64,000 nt of DNA, from NCBI RefSeq assembly GCF_965641715.1, contig NZ_OZ282453.1. One strand, 5' to 3'. The DNA comes from Escherichia coli (lineage in GTDB: Bacteria > Pseudomonadota > Gammaproteobacteria > Enterobacterales > Enterobacteriaceae). Under the pieces are notes generated by a model, which was not told where the DNA came from, ran no database searches, and was given only the letters and a program-made list of their open reading frames with translations. Every line of letters starts with the position of its first letter. Within the stretch, counting starts at the first letter, position 1. Made by a program: the position numbers and the translations under genes. Positions 30,597 through 43,114 of this stretch are shown piece after piece.

Positions 30597-30963
30597 TACT
30601 GACCTCCGTCTGGGTATAGACATCATATTGCATAGAATTAACGCGGCGTATGGCGGCTGCCATATTTTCGCTACGTGGGACTAAGCTTAGTGAACTGACG
30701 CGGGCAGACCCGCGTTTGGTAATATCCTGCAACAGCTTCTTAGCGAGAATAGATATCATCTCCAATAATTATCTATAAGCCGCTCTTATGATTAAAAAAA
30801 CGCGATGAGATAAAAATGTGTCATTTTGCGACAAAATTGCGTGCTTGTGAAAGTTGTTATAAATCAAATAAGTGGTTGTGAAATTTGCACTCTGAAAAGG
30901 ACGTCTTATCTTTAAATAAGTGGTAGCGAATCGCTACGGAATAGAGATAACACGAGGAGTGGT

Positions 30964-31005
30964 TAGAAATGGCTAAAGTTCTGGTGCTTTTACATAGCTA
31001 AACAC
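30964..31005. other. attL of the wrbA island (proposed crossover GT at 30984-30985)
   Basis: The host-to-island transition is located by comparison with the attR junction. GTGCTTT is shared at 30984-30990 and 42533-42539. Confidence 0.7.
30969..31001 (+). pseudogene. wrbA: orphaned native 5' end of wrbA (MAKVLVLLHS*), severed by island insertion
   Basis: ATGGCTAAAGTTCTGGTGCTTT equals the remembered native wrbA start (MAKVLVLYYS...). The sequence diverges after 30990 and hits TAA at 30999-31001. Confidence 0.85.
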
Positions 31006-31329
31006 GTACATTCAACTACCTGTTAATTACAGGACATAAACAGGTTAGTACCTATTCAATTTAAAGGCATTTCCCCAAGTATCTAAGCAATTCTACACAG
31101 ATTCTATGCAGTATCGGTATAGTCCCTTTTTATCATAACTTATTGAAATATATAAAGAATCTGTGAAGTATCTTTTCAGGGTAAACTGTATCGTGTTAGT
31201 CGTCCCTCTCCAGACACTACATATAGTGCTATATACAGGGTTATATAGCGATGTATAGATGCTTGGTCACCATACGTTACAGTTGCAAGAGATAACAATC
31301 AGCTATGTGAAAGTTAGGAAGTGATGGTT

Positions 31330-31367
31330 ATAGTTGATTCGGTTAGTTCTAGGAATCAACCTCATAG
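31330..31367 (+). repeat. hairpin unit U1 (ATAGTTGATTC...CTCATAG family)
   Basis: Stem GTTGATTC (31333-31340) / GAATCAAC (31353-31360), 12-nt loop, then CTCATAG. Confidence 0.7.
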
Positions 31368-31934
31368 TTACCTTGTCAAATCTTCGTAGTTCCTCTTAAA
31401 AAATCACTTACAGACACCTTAATATCTATACAGATTTCATGTAGAACACGATTAGTGCGTAAAAAAGCTATTATGTTAAAAACGCACTGTATACGTATCA
31501 GTACTGATTTATAAGGGTTTTGTGTATTGGCTGATAAGAGGCTATACAGCACCTTGAGAGCATGTCTTGTAAGTCATTGATACATAAGGTCACAGAAGTT
31601 TGTAGCTGTTACAGAGAAAACTGGATAGGACTTCACAGGACTATAAAATGTTACAGCAATTGATAGGTGAAATCTTCTTGATAGATGCTGTGAAGTGTGA
31701 TGAAGGTTTCTTGAGGTGGAGTTAACAGATGCTATGAAGAAAGTCAATAGATATTTTAAAATTCTGCAAAGGGGGCCACATAGCTGGTGTGACGGGTACT
31801 TAGCAGGTATAGACCTGTGATAGATATTTTCGAAGATTCGGGGAAGATGAGATTCAAAGAGGACTAGTCATTTTTTATAAAAATTTTCAGAGTCTGAAAA
31901 GTTACTGCACAGATTTTGCACAATCCTACCAAGC

Positions 31935-31969
31935 CTCATAGTTGATTCGATTAGAAGCTAATCTCATAG
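31935..31969 (+). repeat. hairpin unit U2
   Basis: CTCATAG-TTGATTC, then stem GATTAG / CTAATC with loop AAG, then (C)TCATAG. Confidence 0.7.
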
Positions 31970-31972
31970 AAA

Positions 31973-32085
31973 GCTCTGTAGCGAGTTTTAACCCCATTTT
32001 TAGGGGTAACCTGTAGGGATGTACCACCCACCTTAAAATAAAGGGGTAAAATCGCTTAGAATGCGTTACAGAGCGTCTGAGAAGC
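31973..32085. repeat. inverted-repeat arm Y (partner 35643-35755)
   Basis: The reverse complement aligns without gaps to 35643-35755. 81 of 113 positions are identical by hand count. Confidence 0.75.
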
Positions 32086-32596
32086 CATATTCACAGATTT
32101 TACTAAAACCTCAGACTTCTAAGTGGTCTTTTTAACAGGAGGGTTCTTTCTCATGTATCACCCTCTCTTCCCGCCAAGTAAGCTACACAGACCTAGAGAA
32201 TATGCCTTCACAGCATCTATATCAGGTCAGATTTAGAGGTCTTGATAGAATCTTCAAAGGTACTTGACAGATAACTATGAAGTTGTTAGGAAGGGGTGTT
32301 TAACGGGGGAAGAGATACGATATAACCCGAAGGGGAGAGTATCATCTTAACAGTGATTGTAAGAGTAAAACTGAAAAGATACTTAACAGAACTACCAAGA
32401 GGGAGCGATAAGACCAGAGGTAGTGACCTGTTAAACAGTTCGTTTCAAAGCTCTTAAGAGTCTGTTAAGTAAGGTCATGTGAACAATCATATCATTTTGT
32501 CAATGCTTTTGTCTTTGACCTAAATCAATAAAATGTATCGTTTGATGTGCTTTTAAACAAAATAGTTAAAAATCTTTTTAGAGGGGCGCTTCGCTT

Positions 32597-33265
32597 GTGT
32601 CACATCCAATAATCCATATCGGTCGTTATCATGGTGGTTCTGATGACTGGCGTACACCGTATCGTCTATTTCATAACCTGCATCGTGAGTATAGCTTCAG
32701 TCTAGATGGCGCTGCAACTGAGCATGACGCATTGTTGCCACGGTTCACCGATGATATAAACCGTCAATCATGGGTTGGTGAACGGGTCTTCGTTAACCCG
32801 CCGTTTAGCATGGCTGAACAGTTCCTCGCAAAAGCCCCTGAAGCTGATGTGTGTGTATGTCTGGTTCCGCACAGGTCAAAGACAACTTACTGGCTTCGGT
32901 GTGTATATACAAACCCCTTCCTGCATGAGATTCGAACATTACACCGAGCGGTTAAATACCTTCCACCAGCAGGAAAGAGAGGTGTTGTAGCGCGTTCACC
33001 ATTTGCAAGCTGTGTTTTGATATACAGGAACACACCCCGTAAACCGAAGGTTGAAATTACCCAGACAATCTATTGTGGCGACACAATGCTTTTACTTGCC
33101 GTGGTTAATAGGGGTGGTTTACGTGGAAGACCTCATATACACGATGCACAGACGCTTGACAGGTTGATTAAAATGCATGACCAAGGGCAATCCGTCAAGA
33201 GTATCGCAGAATCGCTAAGAATGCCTCTAAGCACCACTTACAGGATTGTTCAAAGGTTGAGCTAA
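32597..33265 (+). CDS. phage Dam-family N6-adenine DNA methyltransferase fused to a C-terminal resolvase-type HTH
   Basis: GTG start with GAGGGG 10 nt upstream. DWRTP...FSLDGAA and VFVNPPFS (motif IV) resemble the phage T1/Stx-phage Dam family. The C-terminus GRPHIHDAQTLDRLIKMHDQGQSVKSIAESLRMPLSTTYRIV resembles the Hin/resolvase HTH. Confidence 0.75.
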   Translation: MSHPIIHIGRYHGGSDDWRTPYRLFHNLHREYSFSLDGAATEHDALLPRFTDDINRQSWVGERVFVNPPFSMAEQFLAKAPEADVCVCLVPHRSKTTYWLRCVYTNPFLHEIRTLHRAVKYLPPAGKRGVVARSPFASCVLIYRNTPRKPKVEITQTIYCGDTMLLLAVVNRGGLRGRPHIHDAQTLDRLIKMHDQGQSVKSIAESLRMPLSTTYRIVQRLS

Positions 33266-33266
33266 A

Positions 33267-33296
33267 ATTCTCATATAGAGCACTGATTATGAGAAT
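33267..33296 (+). terminator. 9-bp perfect hairpin directly after the methyltransferase stop
   Basis: ATTCTCATA (33267-33275) / TATGAGAAT (33288-33296), 12-nt loop. No clear T-tract, so its function is uncertain. Confidence 0.35.
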
Positions 33297-33474
33297 GTTA
33301 AAGAGGCGATTTCCCCTTTCTGGGGTTATTCGCTTTTTACTGGAAGGGTTATTTTACAGAGGTTTTTCAAACCCCCTCAATAATAAAAAACGAGCAACAA
33401 ACGAAGAGCGAGAAATAAAATATTGAGACTGGTGAACGGGGTCTGTAAAGATTGTTTAAGAAGTCGGTTTAGGG

Positions 33475-33518
33475 ATTGGTAGATGATTCGGATGAAGCAT
33501 CCTCATAACAATACCAAT
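33475..33518 (+). repeat. hairpin unit U3 (nested stems)
   Basis: Outer stem ATTGGTA / TACCAAT. TGATTCG. Inner stem GGATG-AAG-CATCC, then TCATAA. Confidence 0.65.
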
Positions 33519-33574
33519 TAGAAGGTGGCTCTCCCTTTCTGGGGATATCGCCTTGTATCTTAGTGAGTCCAGGA

Positions 33575-33751
33575 AGTTCTCTGTGAAGGGACTTGTCAGT
33601 CCTTTATATTGGCTAATTACAACTTATTGAAAAATAAGCATTTTTAGAAATCACTGTTAAGGTTACAGAGTTCTCTGTGAAGAGACTCGTCAGCTCTCTA
33701 TATTGGCTAATTACAACTCATTGAAAAATAAGCATTTTTAGAAATTGCTGT
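33575..33751 (+). repeat. two direct 83-bp repeats with 94-bp period
   Basis: 33575-33657 against 33669-33751: 75/83 identical by hand count. Each copy contains CTGTGAAG...CTTGTCAG/CTCGTCAG and the hairpin CTTATT-gaaa-AATAAG (copy A; copy B reads CTCATT). Confidence 0.85.
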
Positions 33752-33871
33752 CAGAGAGGTGAGTACTTGATAGATACAGCTTTCCGGTTCTGTCAAGATA
33801 TTTTTTAATAGATAGCACAAAATGCTAAAGATACCCCTATACCATCACGTACAGGGGGTTTTGAAGGGAGT

Positions 33872-34060
33872 TTAACGGGGTTCTGTGTGGTTATCTGTTC
33901 TGGTCCTGTCCTTGAGGTCAAATGACCATTCACGACCAAACAATCTGAACACGATAAACACCCGAACGATGAAATAGCGGAGCAGAAGACCTGCAATCAG
34001 CCCAACACCTCCACCAGCCCATACATCAGGTGACCCCAGCTCAGGAGGGAGATTTACCAT
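33872..34060 (-). CDS. possible small membrane protein (62 aa from the internal ATG; 74 aa from the first ATG at 34096)
   Basis: Only minus-strand ORF in the island besides int. This patch is visibly more GC-rich than the surrounding non-coding DNA. AGGAA lies upstream of ATG 34060. TM segment GGGVGLIAGLLLRYFIVRVFIVF followed by a basic tail. Confidence 0.35.
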   Translation of the reverse strand: MVNLPPELGSPDVWAGGGVGLIAGLLLRYFIVRVFIVFRLFGREWSFDLKDRTRTDNHTEPR

Positions 34061-34097
34061 TAAATTTCCTGTGTGCAATGCAATACCATGTGACATA

Positions 34098-34153
34098 CAT
34101 AGTTGATTCGGTTAGTTGGGCTTGTACCAACCCCTATCGAATAAACCTCATAG
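34098..34153 (+). repeat. hairpin unit U4 (nested stems)
   Basis: CATAGTTGATTCGGTTAGTT is identical to U1 over 19 nt. Outer stem TTGATTCG / CGAATAAA, inner stem GTTGG / CCAAC, ends in CTCATAG. Confidence 0.7.
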
Positions 34154-34222
34154 CCACGCTTCATATTTCCCCCTCTCTCATAAACCATTATACCACAAAT
34201 GTTACGAAATTGTTAAAAATAC

Positions 34223-34251
34223 TTGACATTAGTCTTTGAAAATGCTAGTAT
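34223..34251 (+). promoter_or_regulatory. island promoter P1 (sigma70-type)
   Basis: TTGACA-17 nt-TAGTAT, preceded by TGTTAAAAAT and followed by TGTATATA. It is a near-copy of P2. A GTTAA-N7-TTAAC palindrome follows at 34261-34277. Confidence 0.65.
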
Positions 34252-34299
34252 TGTATATAAGTTAACAGAGAATTAACAATTATAAGGACTAGCTTATGA

Positions 34300-34857
34300 A
34301 TGAACGACAGAGAATTTAGAGCGATGCTTCAGGCATCGAGACAACGTAACAGATACAACTCCTACAGCTACACAGACACCCCCACCAGCTACGAACTACC
34401 CAAGCTCACCAGAGCAGAACGCAAAGGCCTTGATGAATTAATTCGTAGCATTACGCCACGAGATAGATTTATGCCAACCAGAAAGAGCACGAAGAACACT
34501 ATTAAAAATTATCTGGCTAACTTTGACAGCTACGAACAATTACCAAGTAAGCTTGATGATGTAATTATCGGATTCTGTAGAAGTGAAGGTCACCCGAAAT
34601 ACAACAAAAAACTATTTTATCTTCTAAAGAATCTTGACGAAATTAACTCAGCCACCGTGACAAATCATCTTCAGCGTCAAGCAACCAGACTTAGCCATGA
34701 ATTACCAAGCGATAAATATTGCGCTTTGCTTGCTGTAATGTGCGCAAAGTTAATTGGTGTTGTTGAGCATCATATTGCCGTTGGAAATATTGAGCCAATG
34801 GAAAACGAGCAACCAGATTTCGAGTTTGACCCGTATTTAGTTACAGAGGAATTTTAA
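34300..34857 (+). CDS. hypothetical protein, 185 aa
   Basis: AAGGA upstream. First gene after P1. No family recognised. Confidence 0.65.
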   Translation: MNDREFRAMLQASRQRNRYNSYSYTDTPTSYELPKLTRAERKGLDELIRSITPRDRFMPTRKSTKNTIKNYLANFDSYEQLPSKLDDVIIGFCRSEGHPKYNKKLFYLLKNLDEINSATVTNHLQRQATRLSHELPSDKYCALLAVMCAKLIGVVEHHIAVGNIEPMENEQPDFEFDPYLVTEEF

Positions 34858-35136
34858 ATGAAGAAACACACTTTGACCCGTATTTCAGAAGAAGCCTTTC
34901 ACGAGCTTACCCGAATTAAACAGACAACTAACCTCCCTCATCAAACTGTTATGCAGCTTGCAATTGCTAAAGAGGTTACTGAGTCGGATTTACTGAAATA
35001 TCCAGTCTCTAAAGGTCGTAAGCACATCCGAATTACTCAGGACGCTTTAGATACTTTGAAGGCACTTAACAACTTTAAAATTGATATCGCCCGACTATTG
35101 AGTATTAAGATTCACAAGTTAGCAATGGGGGTTTAA
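34858..35136 (+). CDS. hypothetical protein, 92 aa (possible ribbon-helix-helix DNA binder)
   Basis: ATG abuts the upstream TAA. The N-terminal KKHTLTRISEEAFHEL pattern looks RHH-like (weak). Confidence 0.55.
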   Translation: MKKHTLTRISEEAFHELTRIKQTTNLPHQTVMQLAIAKEVTESDLLKYPVSKGRKHIRITQDALDTLKALNNFKIDIARLLSIKIHKLAMGV

Positions 35137-35351
35137 TGCTATGCGTTACCTTTGAATACCACACGGATAAAATGATTCGCTACATCTCCGACCTCCTGAT
35201 TGAAGGAAACGGATTCGGTGACATCCATAACTCAAAAGATATTTTCATTAAAGCCATTGGCCCAAATGAAGTACTGAAAACAGCAGTTAAACCGGAATGG
35301 TTTGAGCGTCACAAGATTGAATTAGGTTATTGGGGTGAGGAGGTTTTATGA
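35136..35351 (+). CDS. hypothetical protein, 71 aa
   Basis: TAATG overlap with the upstream gene. Confidence 0.55.
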   Translation: MLCVTFEYHTDKMIRYISDLLIEGNGFGDIHNSKDIFIKAIGPNEVLKTAVKPEWFERHKIELGYWGEEVL

Positions 35352-35635
35352 AACCTTGGCATGAAGATGTTAGACGATATTTTACAGAACACCTTATCTA
35401 TGATGAATCCAGTGATTCCCTGTGCTGGTCTGATGGAGAGTCAGTCACGATAAACACCGACGACTACGGCAACAAAACATTTAATATAGGCCGATATACT
35501 TTCTACGTGAAATATGTTGTCTGGTTCCTTTATCATGGCTATCAATCCAACAAGCAAATTATCCATCGAAATGGTAACAGAGCCGATACCAGACCAAAAA
35601 ATCTTATGCAAGTCCGAGACTTTAAGAGAAATTAG
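35348..35635 (+). CDS. small HNH-type endonuclease-like protein, 95 aa
   Basis: ATGA overlap with the upstream gene. YVVWFLYHGY...IHRNGNRADTRPKNL resembles the HNH_3 motif (H-x-N-G-N..DNR..NL). Confidence 0.65.
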   Translation: MKPWHEDVRRYFTEHLIYDESSDSLCWSDGESVTINTDDYGNKTFNIGRYTFYVKYVVWFLYHGYQSNKQIIHRNGNRADTRPKNLMQVRDFKRN

Positions 35636-35642
35636 AAAAACA

Positions 35643-35755
35643 GCTTCTCAGACGCTCTCAATCGCATTCTAACGCAAAAAACTATCTTATTTTAGGGTGG
35701 GTAATACCACTGTACAGGCTACCCCTGAAAAAGACTGTTTAGCTCGTTACAGAGC
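35643..35755. repeat. inverted-repeat arm X (partner 31973-32085)
   Basis: See arm Y. Lies in the 156-bp gap between the HNH gene and the next ORF. Confidence 0.75.
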
Positions 35756-35791
35756 GATTGAGGAGGTCTGGTAAAAAGGAGATTTTAAGAA

Positions 35792-36121
35792 ATGAGAGAA
35801 TTAAACTTCCCACTACAGATTTTTATTGATACCGACACCGCCATGATGATTCAGGCTTTCACTGATGTAGGTGTTAGCATTGACTTTGATAAGTTGTTAG
35901 AGTTAATGACTGATAATGCGGAAAGCATCTCTGACTTTATTCAGTCGGTGGAGTTTAACGAGCCTCGAATGATGCTACCAATTAAAGACAGCAACATGAA
36001 AAGATTGGTTATCGAGCAAACGAACAAATTCAGCGTTAGCCCTGAAAAATATCTCAAGGCGGCTATAGCAATTTTGTACGCTGACAATATTTTGGTGACG
36101 GATTCGAAGGTGGTGCATTAA
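35792..36121 (+). CDS. hypothetical acidic protein, 109 aa
   Basis: AAGGAG lies 8 nt upstream of the ATG. Confidence 0.6.
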   Translation: MRELNFPLQIFIDTDTAMMIQAFTDVGVSIDFDKLLELMTDNAESISDFIQSVEFNEPRMMLPIKDSNMKRLVIEQTNKFSVSPEKYLKAAIAILYADNILVTDSKVVH

Positions 36122-36186
36122 TGGAATTGGTGATTATCTGTTTTGTATTGATTGGTATGATTGCAGGTGCATCTATTAAAGTATAA
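36121..36186 (+). CDS. 21-aa hydrophobic peptide MELVIICFVLIGMIAGASIKV
   Basis: TAATG overlap with the upstream stop (translational coupling). Single TM-like stretch. Below the ORF-track size cutoff. Confidence 0.4.
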   Translation: MELVIICFVLIGMIAGASIKV

Positions 36187-36211
36187 ATGTTACCAATCTG
36201 TTAAAAATCTG

Positions 36212-36240
36212 TTGACAAATAACCTTGAGCATGACATAAT
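36212..36240 (+). promoter_or_regulatory. island promoter P2 (sigma70-type)
   Basis: TTGACA-17 nt-CATAAT, preceded by TGTTAAAAAT and followed by TGTATATA. Confidence 0.65.
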
Positions 36241-36246
36241 TGTATA

Positions 36247-36503
36247 TATATGAGGATAGTCTTCTATCCGAAGTCTATAGGGAGAGCAATTCTCCTTGAA
36301 TTAAAATATTAATCATCTCTACATCAATGATAACTATATTCTGAGTTGGTGAGGTATGTTCTATACCGAACATTCTGAAAGGTGCAATGCTTTTCGTCAT
36401 GGCCTTTCAGTTTAGTCTGAGAGGCTATCTCAAAAAGTGCTTAATCATTCATTCATTGAATCCTTTACAGCTTTGCCCTAATCATGAGTTAGGGCGTTTC
36501 TTT
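36247..36503 (+). ncRNA. putative ~255-nt leader/short RNA from P2 to the first terminator
   Basis: No ORF of 60 aa or more. Hairpins GGATAG-tctt-CTATCC, GGAGA-gcaat-TCTCC and CTGAAAGG (36375-36382) / CCTTTCAG (36403-36410). Ends at an intrinsic terminator. Confidence 0.3.
36475..36503 (+). terminator. intrinsic terminator in the P2 leader
   Basis: GCCCTAA-tcatgag-TTAGGGC followed by GTTTCTTT. Confidence 0.7.
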
Positions 36504-36573
36504 AAGAGTTTTAAGCAGAGCTTTTAAAGAAAGTTTTTCCTGAAACTTCGTTAACGTTATAAAGCAAACCTTC

Positions 36574-36610
36574 AAAGCCCTTCACAGATTCAATGTTTAG
36601 GGCTTTTCTT
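36574..36610 (+). terminator. second hairpin/terminator in the P2 leader
   Basis: AAAGCCCT / AGGGCTTT 8-bp stem. The 17-nt loop contains CTTCACAGATT. Followed by TCTT. Confidence 0.45.
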
Positions 36611-36707
36611 AATAGAGCATCTTTAATAAATCGTTAAGTCATCTTCTAAGTGTATTGGCGTTGAAGGTGCTCTGTTAAGAAATAAACCACACTTAGAGGA
36701 AGTTATA

Positions 36708-37418
36708 ATGACAAACGATTTATATATTAACGGTAAAAAGGTTGATAGCTTCGGTGACTGGTCGCCACAGACTGAACATCCAGCTATCACTATTCAGCGC
36801 AAAGAACACGATGAAAGAATTGCACTTGAGCAAGAAATCCGAATGTCACCAAAGGTAATTTCCTTTGTGGCTCCTGAGCCTCAAGATATGCCGGATATTT
36901 GCAAAACTGAAGCATTGCTTGAGCTTGAAAAGAAATTTTACCCAGCTTTAAAAGCACAGCGTCTTAAACTAGATGACGCTTACAGTAAAGTTACCCTGAT
37001 GCAATCAGCTATTGAGCCATCAGAATTTGAGATTCAGGATGAATTGTCACAGAAACCATTTGTCTATTACCAATATGAAGACAATGATGGTTTTGGTACT
37101 TTTCCTGAGAATATCCCAGACGTGATTAATAATCCGATGGATGGATATCGAATTGTGAAGATGGTTAAGGCATCAAGAGGTGCTGGTCAGTTTATTTACA
37201 TGACTAATAAGAGCGATGAAGAACTCGCTGAACTTGCTAGACAGAACATCTTGGCATCACGTAACAAGCAGCTTGATAATGTTAAGTTGTATCTCTCAAG
37301 AGAGCTTCAGGCTATGAAAGACCTTGTGAAAGAATATGAAGATGCTAAGAAGATTGCTATGCAAGCCGATATTGAGCAGTTAGTGAAGATTTCTAGCAAA
37401 TATGCAAAGGCTATTTAA
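36708..37418 (+). CDS. hypothetical acidic/coiled-coil protein, 236 aa
   Basis: AGAGGAAG upstream. It sits where tail assembly chaperones sit in siphophage gene order, but I saw no sequence motif supporting that role. Confidence 0.6.
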   Translation: MTNDLYINGKKVDSFGDWSPQTEHPAITIQRKEHDERIALEQEIRMSPKVISFVAPEPQDMPDICKTEALLELEKKFYPALKAQRLKLDDAYSKVTLMQSAIEPSEFEIQDELSQKPFVYYQYEDNDGFGTFPENIPDVINNPMDGYRIVKMVKASRGAGQFIYMTNKSDEELAELARQNILASRNKQLDNVKLYLSRELQAMKDLVKEYEDAKKIAMQADIEQLVKISSKYAKAI

Positions 37419-37437
37419 TTATGATGTGAGGTGAAGA

Positions 37438-37653
37438 ATGATTGATTTAACTGAACGCTATGAAGTTATTAAGTCTGTTTGTGAGAACTTAAAGCTTCAG
37501 ACTAAACCAAAGCTACGAATTAAAAATCAGCATCAAGTTATCACCTCACACAAACCAAAGGTTAGAAGGATTCCTTCATGGTGTATTGACCGTGTTCCTG
37601 CTGATGCTCAATTAATTGGTGAGTCTGGTTCTTACACTTATATCCTTCATTAA
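37438..37653 (+). CDS. hypothetical basic protein, 71 aa
   Basis: GAGGTGAAG upstream. Confidence 0.5.
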   Translation: MIDLTERYEVIKSVCENLKLQTKPKLRIKNQHQVITSHKPKVRRIPSWCIDRVPADAQLIGESGSYTYILH

Positions 37654-37660
37654 AAATTAC

Positions 37661-37704
37661 AAAGGGGAGAGATTAGCCTTAATTGGTTAGTCTTTCCCTT
37701 TTTC
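37661..37704 (+). terminator. imperfect hairpin + T-run upstream of the tape-measure gene
   Basis: aaaggggagaga ... tctttccctttttcg, with a bulged stem. Confidence 0.4.
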
Positions 37705-37734
37705 GTATATGAACACTTAAGAGGTGAAACATGA

Positions 37735-39864
37735 ATGGCACAGTTTAAAGTTGATAGTTTTATCGTTGAGCTAGGCTTCAGCGAGAACGTTATTAAGGGC
37801 TTGCAAAGAGTTGAAAAGGCAGCTTTGCAGTCAGCACAAAGAATTGAGCGTAATTTGAATAGAGCGTTTAAGGTCGATACCAAGCAACTTGACAGCAATT
37901 TAACGGCTTCTTTGAAGTCAATGGAAGGAAAAATTAATAAGACCTTTGACCGTCTGGAAGCTAGAGCAAAAAATACTAAAGCTTTCCAGTTTACCACCAG
38001 ATTTAATGACACTGTTAATCCTCCAAAACAACCGAGACAGCCACGAATTAGCGGCAACAGAGCAATCACAGCAGCTTACTCAGCGAATATGAGCAAGTTA
38101 AAGGGCTTTGACCCTATTTTGCAGAAATACATCAAATCTCAGTTTTACGGGCTATCTGCTAAAGCTGGGTCAATGGATAACACCAAGTTTAATGAAGCCC
38201 TTGCTAAACTAAATTCAAGTGTAAGAGAAGCAATTGCTAAAGCTAAAGGTCATACATCCACCAGCATTAACGGTGACAGAGCAGCTAATAGTCTTGATAA
38301 CCTGTCTTCAGCGGCGGTTAAAACAGCAGGTGCATTTATCTCAATGCAGGCTGTATTAGCCAGTTATCAGAAGATTATGGAGGTTGGTTTACAGCGTGCA
38401 AGTGCTGAGCGTTCAATTGATTTCGTATTTGATAAAGATGCAGGTCAGGTAAAAGAGTTCACAAAGTCATTAGCTCAAACAACGGGTTTAGATATCGCTG
38501 AACTGCAATCACAGTTTGCTGGTTTCGGTGCTTCAGCTAAAGAGTCTATGGGTATTCAAGGTTCTGAAGAGCTTTTTAGAAATATGATTGGCTATGCTCG
38601 TTTAATGGGTCGAAGTGAAGAAGAGATTAAGCGAGCACTGACAGCATTATCACAGATGGCTGGTAAGGGTCAGGTTATGGCTGAAGAGCTTAAGGGGCAA
38701 CTAGCTGAAGCTGTTCCTGGTATGGTTCAGGTATTCGCTAAAGCAACCGGAAAGAGTGAACAGGAATTATTTGATGCCATGAAGAAGGGGGCTTTAAAAT
38801 CTGCCGATACTCTTCAGAAGGTCACTCAGGAACTGAATAGACAAATCACCGCTAAAGGTGGCTGGAAAGCTATTTCAGAAAGTACACAGGCACAACTAGG
38901 GAACTTGAAAAACTCTTGGAATACCACGCTTGACAGTATTTTCAGAGGTTCTGAAGATGGTTTACAGGACTTCACAAGAAGCTTAACCAATCTTCTAAAC
39001 GCTCTTGGTGGAACTGGTAAAACATTAGGTGAAAGTTTTGGTAGCTTGATGAGCGATATGTCACATGGTATCGATTCATTGACTGATATCTCTTACAGGG
39101 TACGAGGTTTCTTTGATGAGGTGACATTAGCTTACCGTTCACTAAATGACACTCAGAAAAAAATTGTTGATGGTTTATCTGATGGGTTAATTGATGGTTT
39201 GAAAATGCTTGCCGTAGCTGTTACTGCTCAAAAGGCTGCAAATGTAGCTGGAGGCTTGTTAAACCTTGCAAACGCTGTTACTTCATTCGGTGACGCTGTT
39301 AATAAAGCTAAAGCTGGCAAGGCTGGTTCTTCAGGTGGTGCGCTAAGTAAAGTCGGTAGAGTTGTCCTTTATGCTGAGTTGGTAAACTTTGCTCTTGATA
39401 ATTTAAACCCTGAAGCAGCTAAGAATCCGAACTTACATCAATCAGGTATTGGAACAGAGACAAACTTCAACCCTGAATACAAAGGCGATTCTACACCAAA
39501 CCAAATTAATGATGGATGGGCTAAGATTGGTAGTTCTATCGCTGACTGGTTTAATGGTGCGGCTAATAAAATTGCTAACTTCCAAGAGCCAATGAGTAAC
39601 CTTGTTAATAACACACAATCAACTCCACCAGCTATTACAGGTGACATGGTTAATAGCAATGCTCAACTTGCAATGGCTATTAGTGAACTATCACGTAAGG
39701 TTGATGCTTTAACAGCAGAATCTAAGAAGCCCTTGTCACTTAATATCAAAGGTGAAGCAATTGTTAGACCGGATGAACCAGCTTTCTTTACTTTCAATCA
39801 ATCAGCTAATGACCAGTTCACGCAGGATATGCTCTTAAGTTCAAGCTATCCAGAGGAAGAATGA
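37735..39864 (+). CDS. phage tail tape-measure protein, 709 aa
   Basis: GAGGTG lies 8 nt upstream. LSQMAGKGQVMAEELKGQLAEAVPGMVQVFAKATGKSEQELFDAMKKGALKSADTL matches the conserved tape-measure N-terminal domain pattern. Long Ala/Gly/Ser-rich helical protein. Confidence 0.8.
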   Translation: MAQFKVDSFIVELGFSENVIKGLQRVEKAALQSAQRIERNLNRAFKVDTKQLDSNLTASLKSMEGKINKTFDRLEARAKNTKAFQFTTRFNDTVNPPKQPRQPRISGNRAITAAYSANMSKLKGFDPILQKYIKSQFYGLSAKAGSMDNTKFNEALAKLNSSVREAIAKAKGHTSTSINGDRAANSLDNLSSAAVKTAGAFISMQAVLASYQKIMEVGLQRASAERSIDFVFDKDAGQVKEFTKSLAQTTGLDIAELQSQFAGFGASAKESMGIQGSEELFRNMIGYARLMGRSEEEIKRALTALSQMAGKGQVMAEELKGQLAEAVPGMVQVFAKATGKSEQELFDAMKKGALKSADTLQKVTQELNRQITAKGGWKAISESTQAQLGNLKNSWNTTLDSIFRGSEDGLQDFTRSLTNLLNALGGTGKTLGESFGSLMSDMSHGIDSLTDISYRVRGFFDEVTLAYRSLNDTQKKIVDGLSDGLIDGLKMLAVAVTAQKAANVAGGLLNLANAVTSFGDAVNKAKAGKAGSSGGALSKVGRVVLYAELVNFALDNLNPEAAKNPNLHQSGIGTETNFNPEYKGDSTPNQINDGWAKIGSSIADWFNGAANKIANFQEPMSNLVNNTQSTPPAITGDMVNSNAQLAMAISELSRKVDALTAESKKPLSLNIKGEAIVRPDEPAFFTFNQSANDQFTQDMLLSSSYPEEE

Positions 39865-40020
39865 TTTAACGGTGTTCTACGTGAATAAAGCAAAGTTAAT
39901 ACCCACACCAAAAATTATTTTTCACGTAGCTCACGCTTAACAGAGAAAATACATATATATCAAAGGCTTGGTTAAAAATGATTAAAATACACTAAGCCTT
40001 TGAAATCAAAGGAGAATTTA

Positions 40021-40794
40021 ATGATTTTTAGCAATCAAATCCGCTACAGTGGCAAAGATGGCATCTATTTCCACTTAAGAGATAATGTAGATGCCTTCTT
40101 AACCTTATCAGCAACTGAAAACATGGAATTTGACAGTCCTATGCAGGTGACTACACAGAACATGCAATCAGGGCAAACCGTCACAGATAATGTGCAAAGA
40201 GCACCCAGAACAATCACTATTAGTGGTGTCGTTGTAGTTGGCTATGAAGGAAGCTTATTATTAACTCGTCAGGGTCAATTAGTAGAAAACTTCATTGACA
40301 CTCTTGAAAGCTGGAGAGACCAGAAACAAATTATTTCAGTGATTTGTAAAGATGGTATCAAGATTGATGACTCAATTATTACCAACTTTAAAGCCTCTAA
40401 AGATGTTACTATCTCTAACGGTCTTCGTATCCAGCTAACTTTTCAGGAAATTAACTTCAAAGCCATTGTAGGGCAAACTGATGTTTCAGCAGCTACTGGC
40501 AAAACTGCTACCACTAATGATGGTGGTGCTACCAGTAAAAAGAATGCGGGTAACGTGACTACTGAACGCAATAACGCACCTATGTTGATGTGTCAGGAAC
40601 TGTATAGCTACTCAGCATCTGAGCTATCTGATGAAGCGCTAAGGGTCCGTAGCAATTGCTCTAAAAATGTCACGGTGAAAGATGGTGTAAGCACCTTCAC
40701 AGCCTCAGCTAATGAGCAGGCTTCAAAAGTGCTTAAGTCGGGTAATGCTTTACGGAAGTTTAGTGTGAATCCGAATAAGAAGGGCACTTATTGA
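40021..40794 (+). CDS. putative tail-tip/distal-tail-like protein, 257 aa
   Basis: GGAG lies 6 nt upstream of ATG 40021. Sits directly after the TMP. The assignment rests on position only. Confidence 0.45.
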
Positions 40795-40811
40795 TTGGTA
40801 ACAATACCAAT
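40794..40811. terminator. hairpin between the convergent tail gene and int
   Basis: ATTGGTA-acaa-TACCAAT. These are the same arms as the outer stem of unit U3. Confidence 0.45.
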
Positions 40812-40813
40812 TC

Positions 40814-42457
40814 CTAAGCGTCCACCTCTTCCATATCACCAGCAGGATAAATCCTTGTTACTGGTTCACCAAAAATAAGCATATCATCTAGTGACTGCAT
40901 CTCATCGGTTGCTTCTTCAAGCGTTAAGGTGTGGTCATCTTTACCATCAAGAGGGAAACCACGAATCATATTTCCATTGTGAAGATATATATCCACCAGC
41001 TTTTCATTACCAGAAACAACAATCTCTTTCACCAGACGCTTAATGATAATCTGGGCTTCAGTTCTCCCCTCTACAGACTCCATATCAAGACCGCTTAAAT
41101 CCAAGCTTGATACAGATTTTACCCTCGCCTTTTCTCGTGATAACTGAACTATCAGTTCATCTTTTTCTTCCTGCTTAACCCGTAGTGCTTCCTGAATCTG
41201 AGTGATGTTAGGAAGCTGTATCAGCGTCTCAGTAAGTTTTTCAAGTTCACTATCAACGGTGTTTAGTCTGCGTTGTAGCTCATCCAATTTAGCTGTGTCA
41301 GTAGCTTCATCGTGTAGCTGTGATAGTTTGCTGAACAGACGACTACAAAGCTGTGTATCAAGTAACTTTCTGGACACTGTACCGTAGCTACAACGGGACT
41401 CCTTATTACCATTGCAACGGTAAGTACCTTGATAAACGGGTTTACGTATCCCTGTAGGAGTCATTACAAGCCCACACTTACAACGGATAAGCCCCTTCAG
41501 TATGTTCACATATAGCCAGTGTTCACCGCTGGATGTTTTCCCCTTCCCTGTTTCCTCTAACAGTTGCTGTACAGCGTAAAACTTAGAGTCTGTGACAATC
41601 TGAGGATAGAACCCTTCAATTTCTTCACGTAACACTGTTTTACGGTCTTCTGTAGAAATCTTAGCGGGAAGGTAACCTAATACACTTCGTGAAGTCAGGA
41701 TGTGTTTAACGCTTAATGCTGACCAGTTGCCATCCGGTTTCTTAGTCTTGGATATTCTGACCTTACGCTGATTAATGGTCGGGTAACCTTGTTCGTTTAG
41801 CCATTTACAGATAGCAAACATCGACATACCAGAAAGACGCTTGTCATAGATGATATTCACCAGTGACGCTTTATCTTCATCAACGATGTAGTGTGAACCG
41901 TCTTCTGATAGCTCTAACCATCCGGGGGCTTGCTTACCCATAGGCTTCTTAAGTTCTCTTGCAAGCTGTGTTTTATGGTTCCAGACCTGAGCTATACGCT
42001 TTTGCTTAACAAGAGATTCCTGATGTGCTCTCTCAGCTATGATGATGTGCTTAATCAACTTCACAGGGTCTGTTAATGCTGATTTGTCGTAGAGTTCACC
42101 ATCTCCCAGAGTCAGTATAGAGACTCCTTTCCTCAGTATCTGCCTGACATCATCTATAGCTGTGTCGATATCAGCCCTACTGAAGCGGTCAAAGTTCTCT
42201 ACAACAATCAGGGAACCTTCTGGAATAGCCCCAGACATAACATTTTCAAACATACGTCTGAAGTCAGAACCTTGAGCCTTATGTTGCTGGTGAAAACCAG
42301 ATTTACCCTTATCAACGTATCTGTGAGCAGGAAGAAGGTAATAATCGTTTTTGTGCTTAGAGTAGAAAGCATCAATGAGGTTTGTTTGCCGTCTTAAGGA
42401 GTCTCCTGAGTCTTGCTCTTTAGTACTCCACCTGATGTATGTCACTAGCAGCTTCAT
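40814..42457 (-). CDS. large serine recombinase (integrase), 547 aa
   Basis: N-terminal resolvase catalytic domain ([28 protein letters not shown]). Recombinase domain. Cys-rich zinc ribbon (CKCG...YRCNG...C). Coiled-coil. Terminal position 75 bp from attR. Confidence 0.88.
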
Positions 42458-42508
42458 ATCTTCGGACTATGCTTATCTAAGTGGTTCATTGAACAGGAGA
42501 ACAATGAT

Positions 42509-43114
42509 ATGAGTGTTAAGGCAAGAATACTAGTGCTTTATTATTCCATGTACGGACATATTGAAACGATGGCACGCGCAGTCGCTGAGGGTGCAAGCAA
42601 AGTGGATGGCGCTGAAGTTGTCGTTAAGCGTGTACCGGAAACCATGCCGCCGCAATTATTTGAAAAAGCAGGCGGTAAAACGCAAACTGCACCGGTTGCA
42701 ACCCCACAAGAACTGGCCGATTACGACGCCATTATTTTTGGTACACCTACCCGCTTTGGCAACATGTCCGGTCAAATGCGTACCTTCCTCGACCAGACGG
42801 GCGGCCTGTGGGCTTCCGGCGCACTATACGGAAAACTGGCGAGCGTCTTTAGTTCCACCGGTACTGGCGGCGGTCAGGAACAAACCATCACATCCACCTG
42901 GACGACCCTTGCGCATCACGGCATGGTGATTGTCCCCATTGGCTACGCAGCGCAGGAATTATTTGACGTTTCACAGGTTCGCGGCGGTACGCCGTACGGC
43001 GCAACCACCATCGCAGGCGGTGACGGCTCACGCCAGCCAAGCCAGGAAGAACTGTCTATTGCTCGTTATCAAGGGGAATATGTCGCAGGTCTGGCAGTTA
43101 AACTTAACGGCTAA
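42509..43114 (+). CDS. wrbA: NAD(P)H:quinone oxidoreductase WrbA, hybrid allele with an island-encoded N-terminus
   Basis: 201 aa. [17 protein letters not shown]... against remembered native [14 protein letters not shown].... AGGAG at 42495-42499. The remainder matches WrbA. Confidence 0.92.
42513..42554. other. attR of the wrbA island (proposed crossover GT at 42533-42534)
   Basis: Island-to-wrbA transition. See attL. Confidence 0.7.

Follow-up and report, generated by a model that had tools for sequence, protein, structure and literature searches.

A GT-centred attP and probable crossover site of the large serine integrase Ec04 in an 11.5-kb element at Escherichia coli wrbA

Classical serine integrases generally act on an attP of ~50 bp and an attB of ~40 bp, which have imperfect dyad symmetry, a 2-bp non-palindromic crossover and no long identity with each other. 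The integrases of Bxb1, phiC31, A118/LI and TP901-1 have the same domain organisation as Ec04, the large serine recombinase (LSR) considered here, but are very distant from it in sequence; phiC31 integrase matches it over the catalytic domain only (E = 8e-10). In contrast to these classical systems, the host of Ec04 is Gram-negative, its carrier is a small non-phage element, and its attP additionally supplies a substitute 5' end for the gene it targets. Durrant et al. 2022 (Nat Biotechnol; PMC10083194) include Ec04 (WP_053290909.1) among the 'experimentally characterized' LSRs of their Supplementary Table 2, a list called '68 active integrases' in PMC12286644. Of the 17 first-batch LSR candidates of Durrant et al., 15 were functional, and their database classed the carrier element as 'Other'. 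The sites given for Ec04 are predicted ones of ~107 bp, and a core dinucleotide, half-site symmetry and the replacement of the WrbA N-terminus were not found in the accessible portion of the paper (PMC10083194). Similarly, the literature text searched contained no individual activity value, cleavage mapping or stated core dinucleotide for Ec04, and nothing specific was found on wrbA in combination with a serine recombinase or integrase.

The window, which is the whole analysed stretch of 64,000 nucleotides from E. coli (assembly GCF_965641715.1, contig NZ_OZ282453.1), has the gene order rutG-ymdF-insert-wrbA-yccJ-agp of the E. coli chromosome. The native wrbA start at 30969 (ATGGCTAAAGTTCTG-GTGCTTT) runs into foreign DNA, and the wrbA frame is taken up again at 42533 by the same GTGCTTT (ATTATTCCATGTACGG…). 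Just inside the right end of the element, on the minus strand, lies the gene of a 547-aa integrase, which contains an N-terminal catalytic domain (PF00239, Resolvase, E = 6e-11), a Recombinase domain (PF07508, 71.9 bits) and a Zn-ribbon (PF13408) whose 22.1 bits fall just below the Pfam cutoff of 25.3; C326, C328, C348 and C356 are invariant among the sibling integrases described below, and the catalytic-motif residues Y7, R9 and S11 as well as Q15 are invariant in four of them. The protein is 100% identical to the L001 protein annotated WP_053290909.1 and to the published Ec04 residues. Moreover, the published attB is identical to the window at 107 of 107 bases and the published attP at 103 of 107, the four mismatches all falling in the far right flank, beyond the arm. 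Judged by these identities, the integrase and its sites are already known as the published LSR Ec04, with the same protein, the same att sites and no substantive difference. Between 30984 and 42534 the window very probably holds an 11.5-kb integrative element in the 5' end of E. coli wrbA, inserted by its own LSR Ec04 (Table 1).

Table 1. Features of the element and its attachment sites in window coordinates
Feature	Coordinates	Strand	Remarks
Integrated element	30986..42532	+	GT-to-GT distance 11,549 bp; circular relative L024 ~11,178 bp
attL	30960..31009	+	attB left half-site + GT (30984-30985) + attP right half-site (30986 to ~31009)
attR	42509..42558	+	attP left half-site (42509-42532) + GT (42533-42534) + attB right half-site
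GTGCTTT identity, attL copy, 7 bp	30984..30990	+	GT crossover (predicted) 30984-30985
GTGCTTT identity, attR copy, 7 bp	42533..42539	+	GT crossover (predicted) 42533-42534
Outer inverted-repeat motif GTGTTAAG, attP left arm	42513..42520	+	Positions 21-14 from centre
Outer inverted-repeat motif CTAAACAC, attP right arm	30998..31005	+	Positions 14-21; non-coding
Cargo backbone common to tonB and yecE siblings	31018..40792	+	Given by homology limits
Tape-measure protein (37735-39864) and tail-tube initiator (40000-40794)	37735..40794	+	Homologs adjacent in Felix O1-like phages
Large serine recombinase (integrase), 547 aa	40814..42457	-	Identical to WP_053290909.1 = Ec04; Pfam domains
Hybrid wrbA, 201 aa	42509..43114	+	Start codon and first 8 codons from attP left arm; rest native

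Both junctions of the element are hybrid, as the left half of attL consists of the wrbA ribosome-binding site, the ATG and codons 1-5, while the right half of attR consists of the wrbA codons for LVLYYSMYG. An earlier reading of the sequence alone (hereafter the sequence-only reading) had designated 30964-31005 as the attP, and had joined the ends of the island into gtgttaaggcaagaatactaG followed by Tgcttttacatagctaaacac. The joined string is exactly window 42513-42533 plus 30985-31005, so the attP sequence stands; the coordinates do not, as they are those of attL, and the attP left arm lies at 42509-42533. The empty form of the site is real and common. Of 5,426 complete E. coli genomes, 5,128 have the reconstructed attB without an insertion, including 100%-identical examples, and about 58-75 have the integrase next to wrbA, marking an occupied site. 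Contiguous attP was absent from the 5,426 complete E. coli genomes, GenBank phages, PLSDB plasmids and IMG/VR, and a metagenome scan with GAATACTAGTGCTTTTACATAG returned three contigs that contain it. In one of these (L024; 11,233 bp, covered 14.7x) the two ends share 55 bp as a direct repeat, as is typical of circular molecules after assembly; the contig consists of element DNA only, and the right end of the element passes straight into the left end via …GGCAAGAATACTA-GTGCTTT-TACATAGCTAAACAC…. The terminal repeat, the element-only content and the joined ends together indicate that an attP-bearing circle exists in nature. The attP junction is also present inside the 23,009-bp contig OOBX01000469.1 (L025:3960-3981), which is ~2x the unit length and, based on 6 kb of the contig, may be a head-to-tail dimer of the element.

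The sequence-only reading had further described the attP as a 42-bp imperfect palindrome centred on GT. GT is indeed present at both junctions (30984-30985 and 42533-42534), the base 5' of it differs between them (G in attL at 30983, A in attR at 42532), 11 of 21 symmetric positions pair on recounting, and the outer arms GTGTTnAG…CTnAACAC are nearly perfect, with GTGTTAAG and CTAAACAC pairing at 7 of 8 positions. The identity around GT is short, as had been proposed, but comprises the 7 bp GTGCTTT and not 2 bp, leaving six possible dinucleotides from the window alone. The palindrome is present as well, but its count alone is not beyond chance, with P = 0.11 in a test that shuffled the flanks and scored the best of the six core centres. 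Over longer arms, 12 of 24 positions pair at G/T, compared with only 6-8 of 24 at the other core centres. Among all window positions, 0.9% reach at least 11 of 21, and only 0.07% match as well as the outer arms do (at least 7 of 8 at positions 14-21). Two nearby T/A centres, at 42528/29 (12/21) and 42531/32 (10/21), were rejected as crossover sites because they lie outside the identity and attP and attB differ there (TA vs TT and TA vs TG, respectively). The symmetry of attB is slight (9/24, P = 0.56), and matches were too weak when a shift of the ZD motif between the attP and attB half-sites was sought by eye. The significance of the palindrome comes from the comparison with relatives and not from the single site.

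Orthologous integrases with 61-65% identity were found in Klebsiella michiganensis, Enterobacter hormaechei, Erwinia sp. and several metagenome bins, and every one of them adjoins wrbA-yccJ. With the integrase as query against genome contigs no relatives were returned, while a later scan with a degenerate attL pattern gave two, in Pantoea dispersa (…CTG-GT-CATCTTACTTAGCTAAAC) and E. albertii. For the loci with both junctions available, the extent of attL/attR identity beside GT was compared. The E. coli element has no identical bases to the left and five to the right (GTGCTTT, 7 bp), K. michiganensis has three to the left and none to the right (CTGGT, 5 bp, ending at GT), and Erwinia has none on either side, so that its identity is GT only (2 bp). 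Since the limits of identity in the three genera intersect only at GT, the single dinucleotide common to attL and attR in E. coli, Klebsiella and Erwinia, the crossover is placed there, and the earlier choice of GT as the centre is upheld. Provided that the 61-65%-identical orthologs cut the same wrbA position, which this assignment assumes, the non-palindromic GT can be named the crossover dinucleotide with high confidence on comparative grounds. In the Erwinia sp. ortholog (L017:9774-11533), the integrase is split into ORFs of 76 aa and 510 aa by an apparent frameshift and the island is short; this copy looks to be decaying, with its junctions still clean.

The arms of attP are conserved in addition to its centre. 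In the non-coding right arm, T6 T7 A8 C9, T11 A12 and C14 T15 A16 A17 (TTAC.TA.CTAA) are invariant in four genera, with the CTAA of CTAAACAC unchanged across E. coli, Klebsiella, Erwinia and Pantoea, and the six E. coli copies compared do not vary in this arm as far as 31006, the first SNP being at 31007. In the left arm, T3 C4, T6 A7, G9, C12, G14 A15 A16 T17, G19 and G21 are kept in seven ortholog loci, a conservation that is partly confounded by the coding role of this arm. Conserved pairs that are complementary between the arms occur at positions 7, 9, 11, 14, 15 and 17, while positions 6, 8, 12 and 16 are conserved in both arms, yet not complementary. C12 is fixed although its codon specifies Ala, Pro or Thr, G14 is fixed at a synonymous site, and T17 is fixed as the third base of Val, Gly and Ala codons; these three bases point to a constraint at the DNA level in the left arm. 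The TAAG part of GTGTTAAG likewise remains unchanged in orthologs even where the encoded amino acid is altered, and its register matches that of TTTAG in the attP of the yecE-type sibling described below. Taken with the Resolvase, Recombinase and Zn-ribbon protein, the real empty attB and the contiguous attP, the conserved arms bear out the serine-integrase architecture that had been proposed for the site.

Related left-end DNA is present in about 548 of the 5,426 complete E. coli genomes, and includes sibling elements of ~11 kb with the same gene order, located at the tonB start codon or within yecE (L002, L005, L006 and L007). Their attB reconstructions equal the empty sites of MG1655. Homology between the siblings and the window sets in at 31017/18, 33 bp to the right of GT, and extends to ~40790, just short of the integrase stop codon; because it stops at both of these limits, the integrase gene and attP together are read as a swapped specificity cassette, and the integrases of the wrbA, tonB and yecE types are only 30-36% identical. 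The attP palindromes of both sibling types are significant in the shuffle test, each with one peak that lies inside the identity core. The tonB-type attP has the core CAATGACCCTTGA with its centre at A/C, pairs at 15 of 24 positions (P = 0.008) and has the outer arms CCGAATAG/CTATTCGG. The yecE-type attP has the 7-bp core AAAATCA, pairs at 17 of 24 positions (P = 0.00015) and has perfect 11-bp outer arms, and its centre is the first two bases of the core, as at wrbA. When aligned by their centres, the wrbA and yecE half-sites have GTGT(A)TTTAG in common, and in each the TTTAG occupies positions 18-14.

For the tonB type, the integrases are those named Ec03 and Kp03 by Durrant et al. 2022; their elements belong to the same ~11-kb family as the Ec04 carrier and are inserted at the tonB start codon. 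The attP architecture is the same, the 8-bp outer inverted repeats CCGAATAG standing ~15-22 bp away from a non-palindromic dinucleotide at the centre; in contrast, Ec03 and Kp03 are only about 30% identical to Ec04, use another target gene and have a core identity of 13 bp. Substitution of the core dinucleotide has been reported for Kp03 (PMC10083194) and is tolerated, and among the top 40 human pseudo-sites of Kp03, 39 have AC at the centre, which is the symmetry centre of its attP (ATGA/CCCT). Reading the crossover from the symmetry centre of attP is thus experimentally supported within the same element family. In the tonB type (L002:23100-23185), the AC crossover lies 2 nt after the tonB ATG, which is kept in the core, while the native promoter region is moved ~11 kb away with element DNA in its place; this element DNA before tonB holds a sigma-70-like TTATAA-N16-TACAAT. 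The yecE type simply splits its target gene.

Several other explanations of these data have to be weighed. The crossover could lie at another dinucleotide of GTGCTTT (TG, CT or TT), the symmetry about GT being a coincidence, and the window considered alone, with its six dinucleotides and P = 0.11, would allow this. The identity CTGGT that stops at GT in K. michiganensis, the GT that is all the identity in Erwinia, the weaker pairing at other core centres (6-8 of 24 against 12) and the TTTAG, which enters the register of the yecE sibling only with G/T as centre, together make it exceedingly improbable. Alternatively, the palindrome may not be a recognition feature at all, the left arm being kept to encode the WrbA N-terminus and the integrase reading an asymmetric sequence. 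Such a view agrees with the ORF (…K-x-R-I-L-V-L) that runs through the left arm and is kept in frame in every ortholog, and with the non-complementary bases at positions 6, 8, 12 and 16 conserved in both arms; what weighs against it is that the non-coding right arm is equally conserved over four genera, that C12, G14 and T17 do not change when the amino acid or codon does, that complementary conserved pairs occur at 7, 9, 11, 14, 15 and 17, and that outer repeats are near-perfect in siblings whose att arms are not coding on both sides. We consider a purely coding constraint very unlikely.

It may also be asked whether the element is a dead prophage remnant that became fixed in wrbA, with its sites as unused relics. 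Its length of only 11.5 kb, with tail genes and without head or packaging genes, the frameshifted integrase of the Erwinia copy and the absence of the attP form from all 5,426 complete genomes (0/5,426) would be in line with this. The integrase ORF is intact, however, and its product is the same as a protein on the list of experimentally characterised, active LSRs; a circular attP-bearing copy was assembled from a metagenome at 14.7x coverage. Moreover, the same size and gene order recur at three chromosomal sites with the int-attP modules swapped, and presence is patchy, the wrbA type being found in ~1% of genomes and the whole family in ~10%. We judge the relic reading to have a very low probability. 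An integrative element with a GT-centred attP is the reading preferred here.

Under this preferred reading, the attP of the element would comprise ~44-50 bp, with two imperfectly symmetric half-sites around the non-palindromic GT, each half-site having a conserved outer motif G.G.T(A/T)AG at positions 21-14 together with inner conserved bases. The functional length of ~44-50 bp is suggested by the left-arm conservation to position 22, the invariance of the right arm to position 22 and the module boundary at +33. By analogy with LSR biochemistry, dimers of the integrase would bind attP and the wrbA attB and then synapse, 2-nt staggered cuts would be made at GT in both sites, and subunit rotation and religation would yield attL and attR, while the non-palindromic GT would fix the orientation. 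Excision would presumably need a directionality factor, and the assignment of protein domains to bases likewise follows LSR biochemistry.

In addition to its predicted function in recombination, the attP left arm replaces the start of the gene into which the element is inserted. It contributes a Shine-Dalgarno AGGAG at 42496-42500 and the leader MSVKARIL- in place of the native MAKVL-, and the resulting 201-aa hybrid is annotated as wrbA by PGAP. The leader of wrbA is swapped in all seven ortholog loci (including L009, L012, L014, L015, L017 and L018), with differing leaders and proteins of 205-206 aa. The attP left arm would therefore double as ribosome-binding site, start codon and substitute N-terminus, and wrbA would be left intact after insertion.

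The cargo of the element appears to link it to virulent Felix O1-like phages. The tube initiator matches the 'Tube initiator protein' of PDB 9ndy (gp018 of the Felixounavirus Bas63; E = 7e-121; Bas63 baseplate described in PMC12609058), and it has ~75% amino-acid identity to its counterparts in >250 Felix O1-like phage genomes. At the nucleotide level it is 89.8% identical to phage wV8 over 519 bp, and further short DNA matches occur at gene borders. No capsid, portal or terminase gene was recognised in the island, six of its ORFs gave nothing from NCBIfam, Pfam or PHROGs, an Rfam scan of the island returned no matches, a PADLOC scan returned an orphan methyltransferase only, and a 236-aa ORF annotated as 'transposase' by PGAP had no match in a PDB search.

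Several non-coding parts of the island were also noted. The hairpin-forming CCTGTTAATTACAGG at 31019-31033, at the start of the backbone common to all siblings and just outside the attP right arm, is a possible terminator or binding site. The 1.6 kb from 31006 to 32596 contain no ORF of at least 60 aa and had no Rfam matches; at this place the siblings have a small serine recombinase (183-190 aa), an AP2/ERF-type regulator, or nothing. A 160-bp block within it (31750-31905) is conserved in island variants (L001 and L024) and is ~70% similar to a CDS-free part of wV8 (14903-15059), with the motifs TTCTGCAAAGGGG and TTTTATAAAAATTTT in common, and may be a phage-type regulatory region. As well, the intergenic gap 33575-33745 contains a 94-bp tandem repeat (1.8 copies, 92% match), which is repeated in the siblings too and is a candidate iteron or origin.

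A parallel for the carrier, as distinct from its att site, is found in the PLE of Vibrio cholerae (ICP1 satellites), which likewise are small islands in the chromosome, encode an LSR integrase and are linked to a virulent myovirus. The PLE have no sequence relationship with the carrier, and we know of no PLE that carries the tape-measure and tube-initiator pair of its helper. No publication connecting Felix O1-like phages with a satellite or island came up in the literature search. Circumstantial pointers to a helper phage are the circular metagenome form and the tail genes that the carrier has in common with Felixounavirus at up to 89.8% nucleotide identity. It is conceivable, and we offer it only as a tentative suggestion, that the carriers form a family, as yet undescribed, of ~11-kb satellites of virulent Felix O1-like myoviruses or of islands acting against such phages. 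Its members would move by interchangeable LSR-attP modules (Ec04, Ec03/Kp03 and the yecE type), would use their own versions of the tape-measure and tube-initiator proteins to subvert or poison tail assembly, and would have evolved an attP that rebuilds the 5' end of the target at no cost to the host.

For the Ec04 att site itself little is new; the present comparison independently confirms the published pipeline prediction and adds the likely core dinucleotide GT and the positions of the half-sites, which would be useful for designing minimal sites or orthogonal core variants. Kp03, Ec03 and Ec04, which are used as landing-pad integrases in genome engineering, all come from one small enterobacterial element family, which is present at wrbA, tonB and yecE in ~10% of complete E. 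coli genomes and is also found in Klebsiella, Enterobacter, Erwinia and Pantoea. This carrier family and its apparent link to Felix O1-like phages may matter more than the att site, and are the more interesting lead.
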